Assembly (NCBI GenBank): GCA_965216325.1
Contig: OZ244160.1
Coordinates: 1,440,001 to 1,504,000, forward strand
Direction of reading: 5' to 3'
From: Coraliomargarita sp.
GTDB taxonomy: Bacteria > Verrucomicrobiota > Verrucomicrobiia > Opitutales > Coraliomargaritaceae
Length of the DNA stretch: 64,000 nucleotides
Within the stretch, counting starts at the first letter, position 1, and each line of letters begins with the position of its first letter. Made by a program: the position numbers. Below, piece by piece: positions 16,701 through 28,700 of this stretch.

Positions 16701-19700
16701 ACCTCTGCGCGGAGCAGCTTGGATTTAAGGAGCGTAACTTGCATAGATCTAATAGGTTCGGATTTAGACAAATTGTCAAAAGGGCGCACAAGTTGGCGAA
16801 TCCCTCTGAGTTTGGCAATTCTGGAATTATTGCCAGATTCTAGCAATTCGAATGCCTAAATCAGGTTTCTTCGCGACGCACGACGACGGAAAACACGCAA
16901 GTTGTGCCCTGTCCCTGCTCACTTTGAATGCTGAGTTCGCCCCCAAGACGATCCGCAATGGTGCGGCAAAGCGAGAGCCCAACCCCGAGCCCTCCATGCG
17001 TGCGCTTGAGCGAGGAATCCTCTTGTGAGAAAGCATCGTAAATACGACCACTCTGAAGATAATCCGGATCAATCCCCGGGCCAGTGTCCTTAATTTCGAA
17101 GCGCAATTTTACATTCGAGTCTGCTAGAGACTCAAAGGAAACCGACAGCGTAACCTGCCCCTCTGCCGTGAATTTGACCGCATTATGCAGCAGTTTACGC
17201 AAAGCGATTCGAATCTCGTCCTCCGGACCTGAGACAAATTGAGGCACATCCGATGGAATATCCGTAACAAGGTCGACCAAGTCCTTGGGTTTCTCGTCAT
17301 TCACCAACTTGATCATCATCGTCGCCGGGTTAAACGAGCCGGACGAGACGTCCTCCTCACCCATGGAAAGCCGGGCATAAGTGAAAATGTCCTGCACATG
17401 CCCGAAATAATCCTTACTACAATCACGAATAGTCCCGAGGAATTCCTTCTGTTCCTCGTCCAGTTCGGTATCCTCCAGCAAATCGAGAAAACCCAAGATG
17501 CCATTCATAGGCGTATTCAACTCGTGGCTGACAATCTCCAGAAAATTAGTCTTCGCCGCATTCACATCGTTGCGGATCACGGTGTCCTGCCGCGTATTAA
17601 ACAGAAAGCTTTCATAGCAACGTCCGACGACGGTCTGAATGTGATCGAGGTCAAAAGGCTTCTTTAAATACTCGGATGCCCCCAGCGAAATCGCCTGCCG
17701 AGCCGTCTCCAGTGTCTCATACGCAGTCAACACAATGACCTCGGTATACTTATCGAGCTTCTTTACCTCACGGAGCACATCAATGCCACTCATGCCACGC
17801 ATCCGAATGTCGGTAATGACCAAGTCGAAGGGTTGCTCGGCCGAGAACTCCACCGCCTCTTCTCCCGATGTGGCAATGGTCACATCGTAGTCATCGCAAA
17901 AGATCATATTCAGCGATTGGCGTGGGCCTTCCTCATCATCGACGACGAGCATTCGTTTGGTTGCTAGAGCAGAGTGGTCTTCGGTCATGAGCGGTTCGGT
18001 TGGTAGAAAGTTAATATCGAGCAATCACTGCTACAATGATTCGGTAGTACACGGTTCAGCGTCAATCAATCCATCTTTCGTTGCGCTACAAACTGGGTGA
18101 CGGATCCATTTGTAGGTTCAATTTTAACCTGATCGCACGGACCACTGCGGTCACATCAAAGGGCTTCTGAATTACAAGGTCACCTTCGGCCACACGACCA
18201 TCCGCACACAGCATGCGCTTATTCCGAGCACTCGAATATGCCAACTGGACCGCGCCCTGCAGGACCGCCTGTAGCCCGCGTATACGCTCAAGAACTTCCG
18301 GCTCAAAGCGGTCCAAATCGAACAGCAAACAATCCACGGCCCCAGACGCGATCAAATCAGCAGCTTCATCCGCGTGCGCACAATACATCACATGCGCAGC
18401 ATCTTCGAGCAATACGCTTAAACTATCTGCAATCGGTTCATATGCATCCAGCACCAACAAATTCGGACGTAGCGCACGAACGGCCTGCTCCAGCCCAGAG
18501 CGAGCCATCTCAACAACATGCGCCCAACTCTGAGCGACCTCATCATGCTCTGGCTGAAAAACTGTCAGCTTTAAATCCTCCAATTGAACATCCCTCAACT
18601 CAGGCCCAAGCTTTCGGCGCACCTGTGATAACGTCTGCCCCGGAAAAATACAGGCACACACATAGGCATCCAACGGCTGAATCAAATCTGCACTTAACTC
18701 CACAGACAACTGACTTTGCTTCAAGGACGCATATAATACGCCCGCCTGTTGCTTCGACTCAAGGAGCGCGACACTGACTGGCGAATTCTGATATTTACCA
18801 CGATAATACTCACGCTCTAAAGCCCCAAGCAGTTTAGACCGACGCTTACTCAAATCGTAAATAACGTATGCCGAGACCATCCCCGTACCGGGGTCGAAAC
18901 ATCTGCGAGCCGCAAATAGAAAGCGCCCTTCGACTTCAAAGTGCGCGTCAGCACCATTGCCAACGCAGTCTTGAAGCGCAAGAAGCACATCACATCGCTC
19001 GGGATGCTGCGGTTCACTCACTAGGCCAAGTTGCTTCCAAGCCAAGGCATTACCTGACATCAGATCGCCTGCAGCATCAAAACACAAAATACCCAACGGC
19101 AACTGATCGATCAGAAACTGCAGTACTTTAATCTGACGCTCCGTATGGCGCTGCTCCTTCGCCCGCCCATATAAGGCCGCGAGAAAATCTGCCATCGAGC
19201 CCATCAAACGCAAATCTTCCGCACCAAACGGACGCTGATCTTTACGACCCGAAACACGAAGAAAGCCGCCTTCTGCAGCACCTGACAAGGGAAGCACAAC
19301 GCGCCCCTGCTCAAAAACACGAGCCGATGACTCGCCATCGGCATTCAGCTCATCCTCGATCAGGAAGCTCCCCCTCAAATATGGGTCAGCCTCCACCGCA
19401 TTGCTAAGCGAATGACAGAAGCCTTGAAAGTCCGAGAATGAGCCAATTGCCCGCGCAAAACGCCGATACGACTCGGACAGTGACGCAGCCGTCATTTCAA
19501 TCGGCGCTGTATGTTCTTCAGACGGTTTCATAGAATCCAGTACTAGGCCCTAGTCACAAGGCAGAGAGATTCGAAAACATGTGCCATGATTCAGCTCAGA
19601 ACTGACCGTAATATGTCCTTGGTGACGCTCAATGATTTTACTCACAATTGCCAGCCCCAGGCCGGTCCCGGCAGAGCCATGCCGAGCTCCGGTATCACGC

Positions 19701-25700: not shown

Positions 25701-28700
25701 AACGGCCGACAACCCATCTGCGGTCTTCTACAATGCAGCAGGTCTGACGCAATTAGAAGGCAGTCAGGTGCAAGCCAACGTGTTCGCGATCTCTCTCGCC
25801 TACGAACAGGACAGTAGCCTTGGACTCGGCAGTCAGGATATGGACGATGACTTCCAACCTATCCCCAGCTTCTTCGCTGCTCATCGCTTTGAGAATAGCG
25901 ATATCGCGCTGGGCTTTGGCGCCTACGCACCGTTCGCCCTGGGCTCCGATTGGGGCAGTGATGCTGACTTTGCAGTCATTGACCCGCGGGTTCCCTACGA
26001 AGGTGAACTCGCCTACGTCAAATACCACCTCGCTCTCGCATGGCAGATTACTGAAACGCTCTCTGTTGCAATCGGCACGAGCTACGACGATGTCGATCTG
26101 GAGGTGAAAGCCAACGCACTGAAATTTGATAGCGATGGCGACGACATCGGCTTTTCCGCATCCGTTCTCTGGCAACCGAATGAACGGCATTCCTTCGGCC
26201 TCAACTACCAAGCCCGCACGAACATCAGGCATGAAGGTAAAGCCGACCTCCTCGTCGCACCAGACACCTTTCTACGCTTCGACGCGGAAGCCGATTTGGA
26301 CTACCCCGAGTCAATCGTTTTCGGATACTCCTACCGCCCTAATGAGCATTGGAATATCGAGTTCAACCTCGACTGGACGAACTGGGACATCATCGACACA
26401 TTCGACCTAAAGGGTCCTCCCGGTGATCTTGGCTATGTTTTAAACTGGGAATCTGCCTTTATCTGGGAACTCGGAGCCACTCGCTATTTTGACAACGGCT
26501 GGCACATCAGCGCAGGCTACACCTTCGTGGAAGATGCCGTGCCGGACGAAGGCTTCTTGCCTATAGTGCCAGACAATGACCGCCATTTCTTCTCGATAGG
26601 CGTCGGGCAAACGATCGGGCAATTCTACTGGCAAGCAACTTACCAGTATACCTACTCAGACGAACGCTCGGTCAACAACCCGAACCTACCCTCCATCGCA
26701 GGAGATTATGACTTAGACAGTCAAGCAGTTGCGTTCTCGCTCGGCTATCGCTGGTAAGCTCACTCCCACAGACCCTGCTCAATCATCTGTTGAGTCGCCT
26801 GCTCGGCCCAGCCTCGATTCGCGGCAGGACTGGCTGGGCTCGGGTGTAAGACCCGACCGACCTGGACATCCATCCCCTTAAGCGCTTCGTTGGCACGCGT
26901 CTGCGCGAAGGCTCCCACACCAATCAACCATTCGGGCTGCAGGGCTTCCACCAACTCACGAAGATGCTGATCACACACCTCATAGAGTGCTGCGATCTCG
27001 GCTGCCGGTAACTTATCGGGCGTGCGATTTTTACCGCCCTCCTCCATGAAGACCAAAGGGCAGTAGTTCGCGACGAAATGATTGGCAAAAAATGCATCCG
27101 CGGAGCCAAAGCGCTCTTTGAACAGCCCCCAGAGTCGACGACCACTGACTTCGCTACGTTGACAGTCAAAGCCGTCAATCGGGCGCTTCGGGTGCTCATT
27201 GGCAGGCTTCGCAACCGGCTCATGAATCCCCACCCAATCACGGATCAATGAAATCTCGCCAAACGGAACCCCACATTGCGCCATCCCAAACGGCCCCGGA
27301 TTCATCCCAAGGAACACGACCTGCTTTTTCGACGCTGCATAGCGCTCCAAATACACTTGGTGCGGCTGCCATGCGTAATCAAGTGGATTATACACCACAG
27401 CGGTTGGAGCCGAAAACGCCAAGGCGTCGACGGCAGCCGACAGTTTCCGCGCAGCGGCAATGCTAGCTTTGGCAATGGAACTACTTGGCATCATTATCCT
27501 GCCCCTGCACATCACTGTGCCCAAGATCACGCTCTGGTGCGATCTGATCTCGAATCAATTGCTTCAACTCCTTCATCTCCGGAAAGCCTCCCTTCGACTT
27601 GCGATCCCAGATTTCGTGCCCATCCAGCGTCACTAAAAAGCGACCACTCGTTTCCGACGGGCGCAAGGTCACGCCACCCAGTTCTTTCTCAAAAGTCGTC
27701 AGTAATTCCTGTGCAGACCAGCCGGCCCGAAGTAACCAGCGACAACCGGTGCAGTATTCAATTTCAACAGTTGGCTTCATCAATCAATGTGGGTTGAATC
27801 AATTCAAGTTCTATAGCGGGAAGGGCATCAACTACGTCCTGTATTGGTTTTCCAAATACGACAAGATCCGGCGCAATATCGCACAAGGGCTTCGCCACAA
27901 AATCACGCTCCGCAATTCGCGGGTGCGGCAAACTCAAGCGCTCAGTCGCAAGCTGGACATTGCCAAAGATCAAAAGATCTAAATCGATCGTGCGAGGTGC
28001 CCAAGCATCACTACGCACACGTCCAAGCTGCGACTCCACAGACAAGCATGCATCCAGTAAGGCCTCTGGCGACAGTCCGGTTTCGATGCAGGCAACCGCG
28101 TTCAAAAAGTCATCGGCATCCCCCATCCCGACGGCACGATTTTGATACACCGGACTGGTTTTCTGAACACGCACCGAATAATCCGACTCGAGCAACCTAA
28201 GCGCCTGCTGCATCTGCCCGAGTCGATCCCCGAGATTACTCCCGAGGGCGACATACGCAGTCGCTAGCGGCACCTCGAAACCTCCGCCGCAAAATAGTCG
28301 CAAATGCAGTCGACCGGCACCGATGGCTTCTCGACCTTAACCGACACTTCGACCACTTTTTCAAAACGCTCTAGAATCTCGCGGCAGATTGTATCTGCGC
28401 AGCTTTCGATGAGGTTAAAGCGGAAGCCGACAAAGATCTCCTTCACGACTGCATAGACCTCCACATAGTTCACCGTGGCGTCTGTGTGATCACTTTCGAA
28501 ATCCAAGCCCGACTCCAGACTCAGCTGAACATCGACCTTGAAGCGCTGTCCCAGCTCAGCCTCCGCTTTGAGCGCACCGTGATGGGCATAGAATACGAGC
28601 CCCTTGAGTTCGAGTTTGGTTTTATTCATTTGAAGAAAGTTAGCAGCAAGTCGCTAGAAGAGAGAAGAAAATACGCCTGTCATCATTCTGACTCCTGACT

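Follow-up and report, generated by a model that had tools for sequence, protein, structure and literature searches.

The gene g81, in which a LuxD-like hydrolase is fused to a methyltransferase, lies among genes for sensor kinases. This raises the question of whether the fused enzyme makes a chemical signal that its neighbours perceive. The locus is in a stretch of 64,000 nucleotides from Coraliomargarita sp. (contig OZ244160.1, positions 1,440,001 to 1,504,000), termed here the window, and all coordinates are those of the window.

Gene set and distribution

Six open reading frames at 16861..26757, together with their domains, were confirmed by reading of the frames and by Pfam, which reproduced the calls of a preliminary description. 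Genes g78 to g83 probably constitute a single signalling module. This module is conserved among marine Verrucomicrobia of the Opitutales and is arranged around an intact two-domain LuxD-like/methyltransferase enzyme, g81. All six genes had been described as having the same order and orientation throughout. Within the Coraliomargaritaceae, all 12 complete loci conform to this. Synteny is also found in 4/4 loci of a second family (L012–L015), but there the gene for the receiver-kinase protein (REC-HK) is downstream of the FadL gene and not of g79, and thus the module gene order is not identical everywhere.

The spread of the module is patchy, as had been noted. The enzyme is present in 14 of 401 phylum-sample genomes and in 18 of 71 family genomes, with a single copy in each positive genome. 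Among the 71 family genomes, g81 and g82 each occur in 18, and they occur together in 17; in the two discordant genomes the gene lies at the end of a contig. The module is gained, inherited or lost as a unit. A Pfam search of the module neighbourhood found no output regulator.

The g81 fusion enzyme

The proposed signal synthase, g81 (21688..23373, minus strand), is 561 aa in length and consists of a LuxD-family alpha/beta-hydrolase (residues ~33–291) followed by a class I SAM methyltransferase (residues ~337–542). Pfam assigns Acyl_transf_2 to residues 47–253 (8.2e-28, 97.9 bits, above threshold) and Methyltransf_11/23 to the C-terminal part (352–476 and 337–542), with no input domain of its own in the g81 of the window. 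The best match in a PDB sequence search is 1THT, at 1e-20 over residues 33–291, a figure identical to that first reported. Residues S121, D220 and H248, as counted in this alignment, are aligned with 1THT residues 114, 211 and 241, which we take to be the catalytic residues of LuxD. In an alignment of 117 homologues that takes in type B (see below) and another family, S121, D220, H248, D353, G355, G357 and G359 are invariant in 117/117. Accordingly, the Ser-Asp-His triad and SAM motif I (DxGxGxG) are kept, as the preliminary description maintained. Its narrower claim, that both S121 and S123 and the motif DxGCGNG are invariant, is correct for S121, D353 and the three glycines, but S123, C356 and N358 are conserved at a level of at least 90%. 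The methyltransferase domain folded alone gives a model of pLDDT 88.2. These properties show both domains of g81 to be intact: the first half belongs to the LuxD acyl-thioesterase/acyltransferase family and the second to the class I SAM methyltransferases.

The NCBIfam LuxD equivalog cut-off is not reached by g81 (91 bits vs 420), and acyl-ACP as the donor is therefore an extrapolation. The methyltransferase domain resembles generic class I enzymes only (Coq5, CmoA, RebM), and its NCBIfam scores for fatty-acid O-methyltransferase (23 bits) and BioC (22 bits) are both far below the cut-offs; for these reasons a lipid is only a putative methyl acceptor.

Kinases, g79 and the outer-membrane channel

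The proposed receptor is g80 (19550..21691, minus strand, 713 aa), which by Pfam is a multi-TM (HisKA_7TM)-GAF-HisKA-HATPase sensor kinase. Residues 1–285 display five hydropathy peaks. Among 12 orthologues H490, N603 and D644/G646/G648 are invariant, as are at least 14 residues of the TM region. The start of g80 overlaps the stop of g81 by 4 nt (ATGA), as read at the junction in the window, and it recurs in 10 further loci; coordinates show it in L009–L012 and L014–L018. The membrane kinase is thus predicted to be translationally coupled to g81.

The 481 aa protein g79 (18086..19531, minus strand) had been described as belonging to no family. There is indeed no Pfam or NCBIfam match to g79, and one orthologue has a weak GAF_2 match, but a fold can be assigned. 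The AF2 model (pLDDT 81.5, pTM 0.67) is matched by Foldseek to DhaR(N), PpsR and DosP and to receiver domains at TMt 0.73–0.79. This new finding points to a soluble protein with a predicted GAF domain, a PAS domain, a small middle domain and a pseudo-receiver; the latter keeps KPF, and its acceptor Asp is not conserved. g79 occurs solely alongside the module.

Two further kinases are soluble. By Pfam g78 (16861..18024, minus strand, 387 aa) has a REC-HisKA-HATPase architecture of the PhcR/LvrB type, without a DNA-binding domain. Across 12 sequences, one of them a Ralstonia PhcR-like protein, its invariant positions are D29, D30, D72, T100, K122, H167, N281 and the G-boxes. The divergent gene g82 (23571..25574, plus strand, 667 aa) encodes a pseudo-receiver without the conserved Asp (residues 1–139), followed by GAF, PAS, HisKA and HATPase domains; the Pfam matches are weak REC, GAF, HisKA and HATPase. 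H456, N569 and D598/G600/G602 are invariant in the kinase part, and L5, I7, L41, F46 and P103 are the sole invariants of the N-terminal part.

A channel of the FadL/TodX family, which serves hydrophobic molecules at the outer membrane, is encoded by g83 (25501..26757, plus strand, 418 aa). It matches Toluene_X at 1.1e-38 (133 bits) and does not reach the NCBIfam FadL equivalog (34 bits vs 585). The real start is probably further downstream, since orthologues align from about residue 50 (tblastn, q50). The presence of g83 signifies that a hydrophobic molecule passes the outer membrane; neither the direction nor the molecule follows from it.

Two types of module core

A comparison with a genome of the same genus reveals a 6-kb hypervariable block at 17989..23990, which encompasses g79, g80, g81, the region between g81 and g82, and g82 itself up to about codon 140. 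By blastn the block has no DNA similarity to the congener, apart from one 105 bp match inside g80, whereas the flanks are 79–82% identical. Amino acid identities are 87–98% in the flanks (panD 98%, g78 87–93%, UDG 89%) and 18–48% in the core (g81 33–48%, g80 18–42%, g79 28–38%, g82 pseudo-receiver 33%), with values of 75% for g83 and 62–70% for the g82 core. The divergent intergenic region (23374..23570) is within the block, and an alignment of eight loci (43% mean column identity) revealed no conserved operator there.

The g81 tree has two clades (99 and 100), and two genera, labelled g1 and g7, are split between both. The g80 tree displays the same two clades. On the flank tree the two congeners pair (window and L051, support 100), types A and B are interspersed so that five changes are needed, and type A as one clade is rejected by the AU test (p 1.5e-35). 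The two-type divergence of g81 and g80 is not seen in g78, g83 or the g82 core. The module core therefore occurs in two ancient, exchangeable types. Because this divergence is common to g81 and g80 and the ATGA overlap recurs, the two genes appear to be functionally coupled. However, g79, g80 and g81 are contiguous, so that any block replacement moves all three together, and their co-variation is by itself no proof of a ligand-receptor relation. Two very different versions of an enzyme-sensor core, exchanged among close relatives, nevertheless present the appearance expected of a private chemical signalling system.

Proposed function and alternatives

Our main reading, to which we give a probability of about one half, is that g81 synthesizes a methylated lipid, a signal that is sensed by g80 and exists in specificity types. 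The LuxD-like domain would transfer an acyl chain to its Ser121 from a thioester, most probably acyl-ACP, and then release it. The methyltransferase domain would methylate the freed lipid, most simply at the carboxylate, to yield a fatty-acid methyl ester or related methylated lipid. Such a hydrophobic product could partition into membranes and exit the cell, re-enter across the outer membrane via the g83 channel and be detected by g80 through its multi-TM/GAF sensor part. This kinase would phosphorylate the receiver of g78, which would relay to an unlinked output, with a second input possibly coming from the GAF-PAS kinase g82. The g79 protein and the g82 pseudo-receiver may be type-specific adaptors, and types A and B may represent different signal/receptor specificities, similar to pherotypes.

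The enzyme may, however, itself be regulated and serve as an output no less than as the origin of a signal. The LuxD-methyltransferase unit is a wide family, which is a new finding from sequence comparison. An output role is possible because relatives are often fused behind input domains: N-terminal PilZ is found in 55 of 150 representatives, of which 21 also have REC, with PAS, and the lipid-binding SRPBCC domain is present in 11. The PilZ motif RxxxR...[D/N]xSxxG is kept in 65/92 of the PilZ domains. In an independent lineage, the Myxococcota, the LuxD-methyltransferase gene of five loci is accompanied by an HK-REC-HK hybrid (5/5), an MMPL lipid-type transporter (4/5) and a REC-GAF-HK protein (3/5); this company and the SRPBCC domain speak for the signal reading as well. 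A spirochaete locus has an HK-REC-HD-GYP gene. It is thus conceivable, if clearly less probable than a signal synthase, that kinases and PilZ/c-di-GMP or REC (in relatives) switch on an enzyme that makes or remodels an envelope or surface lipid, e.g. one that is methyl-esterified, MMPL-exported or passing FadL, without any cell-to-cell signal. This leaves unexplained why two ancient types of the enzyme, the g80 sensor, g79 and the g82 pseudo-receiver are exchanged inside conserved flanks, and the g81 of the window is devoid of an input domain. The two readings are compatible, as a regulated synthase with feedback meets both.

Other explanations carry less weight. FadL/TodX channels are uptake channels (Toluene_X), and in the PDB search with the hydrolase part LuxD is followed by esterases, first MHETase (2.8e-8) and next the cinnamoyl and chlorogenic acid esterases. 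A hydrophobic ester or lipid brought in through FadL might thus be cleaved by the hydrolase, and its product modified or detoxified by the methyltransferase, with the kinases regulating the response. This is improbable: LuxD is far ahead as a match (1e-20), catabolic genes were absent from all loci examined, and a catabolic enzyme gives no ground for two deep types that co-vary with a kinase sensor. Reversible protein methylation analogous to CheR/CheB, where the methyltransferase modifies kinase carboxylates and the hydrolase demethylates them to tune output, would suit a fusion adjoining several kinases and coupled to g80. Yet the hydrolase part is of the LuxD acyltransferase family and not a CheB-type methylesterase, Pfam and NCBIfam gave no CheR-family match, the partners (SRPBCC, MMPL, FadL, AMP-binding) indicate a lipid, and two opposed activities fused without a switch would be futile; we regard it as still less likely than import. 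Hardly any credence can be given to a BioC/BioH-type biotin pair, with malonyl-ACP methylation and later cleavage of the pimeloyl-ACP methyl ester, even though the two activities follow BioC/BioH logic. Some source names do read "pimeloyl-ACP methyl ester carboxylesterase", a generic label for alpha/beta-hydrolases. The BioC match of g81 spans just 46 residues and scores 22.4 bits (cut-off 184.95), and a much better BioC-like frame is present elsewhere in the genome (127 bits, model positions 1–237 of 244). No bio genes are in the module neighbourhood, and the gene is confined to 18/71 family genomes.

Comparison with known systems

The closest sequence relative of the N-terminal half of g81 is LuxD (1THT), the myristoyl-ACP thioesterase/acyltransferase of the lux operon, with Ser-Asp-His positions that align. 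In g81, unlike LuxD, the hydrolase domain is fused to a methyltransferase, and kinase genes instead of lux genes lie next to it. BioC and BioH likewise are a class I methyltransferase and an alpha/beta-hydrolase that work on acyl-ACP methyl esters, and fused BioG-BioC forms exist, but g81 scores far under these families' cut-offs and its context is unrelated. The agr locus of staphylococci and comQXPA of Bacillus are pherotype loci of peptide quorum sensing. They resemble the module in having a hypervariable segment over the signal enzyme and receptor sensor, conserved flanks and a spread incongruent with the flanks. Their signal is a peptide, though, their proteins are unrelated to those of the module, and the specificity of the module types is putative. 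In rhizobia, an outer-membrane FadL channel has reportedly been linked to perception of long-chain AHLs. There, as proposed for the module, a FadL channel is tied to perception of a hydrophobic signal, but FadL is not known to be encoded beside the receptor and synthase, and the molecule perceived is an AHL.

The Phc system of Ralstonia was compared by means of a Ralstonia phcBSRQ-like operon. In Phc, as PMC8578825 describes, the synthase is a methyltransferase, and it works with a membrane kinase and a REC-plus-kinase protein that has no DNA-binding domain. Its own signal is a fatty-acid methyl ester. Similarly, in the module a methyltransferase-containing synthase is followed directly by a multi-TM histidine kinase and then by a soluble REC-HisKA-HATPase protein lacking a DNA-binding domain. 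Signatures of balancing selection in phcB and phcS, likened to agr in PMC6580516, parallel the two types of the present module. On the other hand, a LuxD domain is absent from the PhcB-like protein. When a profile of the 117 fusions was aligned to this protein by hhalign, the probability was 28% over 132 columns of the methyltransferase core, and the LuxD part had no match in the N-terminal ~280 residues of PhcB. Neither in 11 scored Ralstonia genomes nor in 24 genomes of the family did the profile bring up anything beyond the generic methyltransferase level. g80 and the PhcS-like kinase share the kinase core alone and their sensor domains do not align; g78 and the Ralstonia PhcR-like protein are 25–27% identical; and the module adds g79, g82 and the FadL channel. 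The term "Phc-like" of the preliminary description suits the gene logic and order but not descent: with synthases that share only a generic methyltransferase core, the module is an analogue of Phc, and not a homologue beyond shared folds.

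The LuxD–methyltransferase fusion protein

The six open reading frames of the module, g78 to g83, lie at window positions 16861–26757. An ORF check and a Pfam search place them, with their domains, where the preliminary description had them. The g81 gene (window 21688–23373, minus strand) encodes the fusion protein. Residues 47–253 match Acyl_transf_2 (PF02273) with an E-value of 8.2e-28 and a score of 97.9 bits against a Pfam gathering cut-off of 20.3, and residues 337–542 match several class I methyltransferase families. In a PDB sequence search, residues 33–291 match the LuxD structure 1THT at 1e-20. 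Residues 114, 211 and 241 of 1THT, which we take to be the LuxD catalytic residues, correspond to S121, D220 and H248 of g81 when counted through the alignment. These three residues, together with D353, G355, G357 and G359, are invariant in 117/117 homologues, and the earlier reading of g81 as a LuxD-like protein with an intact Ser-Asp-His set and a SAM motif is thus confirmed. Among NCBIfam models the N-terminal half is closest to LuxD, at a level below the LuxD equivalog (NF052253, 91 bits vs a cut-off of 420; PRK13604, 87 vs 529). No lux operon context is found at the locus; kinases, FadL, panD and UDG surround the gene.

The C-terminal half has the SAM motif I and the Rossmann-like fold of a class I SAM-dependent methyltransferase (model pLDDT 88.2). 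A fold search gives at least 500 methyltransferase-type PDB matches at E ≤ 0.001. The closest structures are Coq5, CmoA, YecO and RebM, with 13–19% identity, and these generic class I enzymes offer no clue to the substrate. This half scores below every curated NCBIfam cut-off, including those of the carboxyl O-methyltransferase families Mtf2 (23.1 vs 400 bits) and BioC (22.4 vs 184.95 bits). The g81 protein is an intact two-domain enzyme of thioesterase type and methyltransferase type, with a predicted activity. Its substrate is probably an acyl thioester, and its product may be a methyl ester or another methylated lipid.

Kinases, g79 and the FadL-family channel

The g81 gene is tightly coupled to that of the membrane kinase g80. 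The stop codon of the former and the start codon of the latter share 4 nt (ATGA) in the window, and ORF coordinates show the same 4-nt overlap in loci L009–L012 and L014–L018 from other genomes. Pfam assigns HisKA_7TM, GAF, HisKA and HATPase domains to g80, in which H490, N603 and the G-boxes are conserved. Many aromatic and polar residues of its transmembrane region are invariant, and it is the only one of the kinases with hydrophobic segments. The g78 protein consists of REC, HisKA and HATPase domains; all receiver residues (D29, D30, D72, T100, K122) and the kinase residues H167, N281 and the G-boxes are retained. The soluble kinase g82 has a weak REC-like N-terminus followed by GAF, HisKA and HATPase. 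Its kinase residues are kept, and the receiver-like N-terminal part has no conserved aspartate. Pfam detects no DNA-binding or other recognisable output domain in any gene of the module.

The 481-aa g79 protein had been described as without a family. It is not featureless, as a fold is found by AlphaFold2 and Foldseek although Pfam gives nothing. Alignments of 12 and then 20 orthologues extend over the full length, with K456-P457-F458 invariant, and one orthologue has a sub-threshold GAF_2 match. The model (pLDDT 81.5, pTM 0.67) matches the N-terminal part of DhaR, PpsR and DosP, which are GAF-PAS regulators, and the last ∼120 residues match receiver domains with a TM score of 0.73–0.79 and an rmsd of ∼3 Å. 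Since this C-terminal domain has a receiver-like fold and the acceptor aspartate column is unconserved among orthologues, it is read as a pseudo-receiver. Along the predicted structure of g79 we thus read a GAF domain, a PAS domain, a small middle domain and the pseudo-receiver. Among the matches listed, strong E-values are limited to at least 11 relatives besides g79 itself, all within this module, and the one unrelated match is weak.

The g83 protein matches Toluene_X (FadL/TodX family) essentially full-length, with 133.3 bits over residues 40–415 and model positions 4–414 of 421, and falls below the E. coli-type FadL equivalog (34 vs 585 bits). Its longest open reading frame shares 74 nt with the end of g82 (window 25501–25574). 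Alignments with orthologues begin only near residue 50, and the real start is therefore probably further downstream. We infer that g80 senses the g81 product and that the channel lets this product cross the outer membrane.

An alignment of eight loci shows no conserved operator in the divergent intergenic region. The promoter scan is at chance, with 9 sites found and 9.7 expected; terminator-like sites number 18, with 13.7 expected. PADLOC gives only weak, generic methyltransferase and REC matches, and the module is therefore not a known defence system.

Synteny and distribution

Gene order was compared by tblastn in 13 loci from the phylum sample and seven further loci of the window's family, Coraliomargaritaceae. 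The identical order previously reported is found in that family, where all 12 complete loci have the six genes in the same order and orientation, but not in a second family. There, in four loci, g81-g80-g79 and g82-g83 are kept and the REC-HisKA-HATPase gene has moved downstream of FadL. A third family has, at L021:1709-4609 (genome G004), a 966-aa protein with a C-terminal REC-HisKA-HATPase part that matches g78 (30% over residues 553–943); the N-terminal 550 residues match no Pfam family and resemble neither g79 nor FadL. The panD gene (aspartate decarboxylase, 4.3e-42) is at window 16343–16846, directly downstream of g78 and, like it, on the minus strand. Eleven of the 12 complete family loci have panD after g78, and the gene marks a conserved left flank.

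The distribution is patchy, as had been stated. The fusion is present in 14/401 genomes of the phylum sample: 8/25 in the window's family (the genome of the window itself not counted), 4/35 and 1/1 in two other families, and none elsewhere. Among 71 genomes of the window's family, g81 is found in 18, g82 in 18 and both in 17. In the two genomes with just one of these genes, the gene found is at a contig end. Because g81 and g82 co-occur, with exceptions only at contig ends, the module is gained or lost, and inherited, as a unit; it is single-copy. Family genomes without the module are mostly small (1.1–2.6 Mb); carriers are mostly 2.5–5.4 Mb, with one of 1.9 Mb. The module seems to have been lost in streamlined lineages.

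A hypervariable core in two types

Within the family, pairs of sequences are 62–78% identical for g78, 50–70% for g82 and 48–69% for g83, with no substructure. The g81 and g80 proteins fall into two groups, termed here types A and B, and identity between the groups is down to the level seen against the second family, at 35–41% for g81 and 28–31% for g80. The g81 and the g80 trees both have two deep clades with strong support; no such split is seen in the g78 or g82 trees. Per-domain identities show that the split extends over the whole of g81 and g80 and over the GAF part of g79. The catalytic residues of g81 are kept in both types alike.

The borders of the variable segment are apparent from a comparison of the window with a genome of the same genus. 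At the amino acid level, identity is 98% for panD, 87–93% for g78, 89% for UDG, 75% for g83 and 62–70% for the GAF-PAS-HK part of g82. It falls to 33% for the g82 pseudo-receiver, 33–48% for g81, 18–42% for g80 and 28–38% for g79. The DNA of the flanks is 79–82% identical, and over window 17989–23990 no DNA similarity is detected except for 105 bp inside g80. A second congeneric pair displays the same pattern of conserved flanks and divergent core.

In the g81 tree of 18 sequences, type A has a support of 99 and type B of 100, and genera g1 and g7 are found in each. A flank tree made from g82 residues 140–667, g83 and g78 pairs congeners, the window with its own congener at a support of 100, and the types require five changes on it. 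Forcing type A together lowers the log-likelihood of the flank tree by 292 units (AU p 1.5e-35). On g81 and g80 together, a single clade of family f1 has a support of 40, a value compatible with either outcome and pointing to no donor of either type. Since g79, g80 and g81 are contiguous, replacement of the block carries all three together, which could by itself produce their co-variation. The enzyme–sensor core is hypervariable and exists in two exchangeable types. What is to be explained is the persistence of two ancient alleles that are repeatedly exchanged at the same borders. By analogy, this is a pattern known from specificity loci, and the two types may represent specificities. As in pherotype-type loci, a hypervariable synthase–receptor segment lies between conserved flanks and is incongruent with the flank tree, as judged here from sequences alone. 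Signatures of balancing selection are reported for phcB and phcS, with a comparison to agr, in PMC6580516.

The wider LuxD–methyltransferase family

Searched exhaustively, the cluster representatives include 1831 matches at E ≤ 1e-3, of which 193 reach E ≤ 1e-30. Among the best 150 of the 1831, many have the whole LuxD–methyltransferase unit at the C-terminus of longer proteins. Pfam, run on 18 of these, places PilZ, REC+PAS+PilZ and SRPBCC (Polyketide_cyc) before the unit, and HMMs built from these annotated segments were used to tally all 150. PilZ is found in 55 of the 150, with REC (and PAS) as well in 21 of these; SRPBCC is found in 11, three of which also have PilZ. Another 26 have unexplained N-terminal extensions, to which Pfam adds just one PilZ, 31 are short full units like g81, and the other 30, which lack an N-terminal domain, are fragments. 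What we take to be the c-di-GMP-binding motifs are kept in 65/92 PilZ domains.

In the phylum sample of the Myxococcales record, the unit is present in 11/151 genomes in frames of 648–916 aa (10 of the 11 are 828–916 aa). At five myxococcal loci the partners are an HK-REC-HK hybrid (5/5), an MMPL transporter (4/5) and a REC-GAF-HK protein (3/5). These loci (L046, positions 2294–11510, and L045, L047, L048 and L050) share a conserved operon with a long-form enzyme of 816–903 aa. L046 has an AurF-like di-iron oxygenase upstream of the operon; L045 is without MMPL, and a DDE transposase adjoins its enzyme gene. In the spirochaete phylum sample the unit is found in 1/151 genomes. There, at L049:3293-12606 (G674), the gene for a PilZ-bearing 1177-aa protein precedes those for an AMP-binding enzyme, a B12-binding radical-SAM enzyme and an HK-REC-HD-GYP protein. 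The product of this cluster may be a more complex lipid whose synthesis is controlled by c-di-GMP. Thus, in three phyla the enzyme is accompanied by signalling proteins and by lipid-handling or lipid-transport proteins, and the family is linked throughout to such partners.

Possible functions

At its most far-reaching, the signalling reading would be that the LuxD–methyltransferase unit is a widespread, so far unrecognised signal-enzyme module that makes methylated lipid messengers under the control of c-di-GMP (PilZ), phosphorylation (REC) or dedicated kinases. In Opitutales the unit would belong to the first system of quorum-sensing type in Verrucomicrobiota, in which two ancient, recombining lipid 'pherotypes' are combined with a dedicated FadL entry channel. 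As a whole this proposal is tentative, with a probability of perhaps 0.3. The chief alternative to a lipid signal made by g81 and sensed by g80 is a regulated enzyme that acts as an output and remodels a lipid. Fusions with PilZ and REC favour such an output, but it leaves the two-type core unexplained; the two explanations can also coexist. A biotin-type BioC/BioH pair is less likely: g81 scores 22.4 bits with BioC, no bio genes are nearby, and a better BioC-like frame is found elsewhere in the genome. That frame, the best in the genome, is at G000:C1:1073330-1074019, outside the window, with 127 bits over model positions 1–237 of 244 (cut-off 184.95). A CheR/CheB-like cycle, in which the methylated substrate would be a protein, is also regarded as less likely, as is a catabolic function.

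In the full-text literature outside subscription journals, a search finds no quorum sensing described in Verrucomicrobiota or Opitutaceae, and nothing on a LuxD–methyltransferase fusion, on this enzyme family or on PilZ-linked enzymes of this kind. If the messenger reading is correct, lipid methyl-ester signals would be made by a new route, with a thioesterase and a methyltransferase in one protein that is non-homologous to PhcB. The natural pair of specificity types would provide an experimental handle on the co-evolution of a lipid signal and a membrane kinase, and c-di-GMP, via PilZ, would be tied to lipid-messenger synthesis in other phyla. Even if the enzyme is a regulated output, an uncharted family of c-di-GMP- and kinase-controlled lipid-modifying enzymes is at hand, in which 193 or more representative clusters reach E ≤ 1e-30.

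Comparison with the Phc system

A PhcB-like protein was reached through a full-length match to g78, which led to a phcBSRQ-like operon in a Ralstonia genome. This operon encodes a 464-aa protein with a methyltransferase domain at residues 286–411, a 447-aa histidine kinase, a 384-aa REC-HisKA-HATPase protein and a 335-aa REC protein, and it agrees with phcBSRQ as described in PMC8578825. The ∼280 N-terminal residues that precede the methyltransferase domain of the PhcB-like protein (L044:5438-6832, genome G432) have no Pfam match.

Against the profile of the 117 fusions, the PhcB-like protein aligns in the methyltransferase core only (132 columns, hhalign probability 28%, E 6e-4), which falls short of homology, and its first ∼280 residues show no match to the LuxD part. 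Run against 11 Ralstonia genomes and 24 genomes of that family, the fusion profile gives generic methyltransferase matches alone, at 20–30 bits. The PhcS-like kinase aligns with g80 in the kinase core alone (29% over 244 residues), and the sensors do not appear homologous. The PhcR-like protein and g78 have a common architecture, with 25–27% identity. The Phc order of synthase, membrane kinase and REC-kinase without a DNA-binding domain is found in the module as well, but with g79 inserted between the two kinases. Because synthase and sensor fail to align beyond their cores, the likeness is one of logic and gene order and not of descent. The proposal of a Phc analogue therefore stands for gene order, logic and the REC-kinase architecture, but not for homology of the synthase or the sensor. 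The module would then be a lipid-signal two-component circuit analogous to Phc, assembled from non-homologous parts and showing pherotype-like variation.
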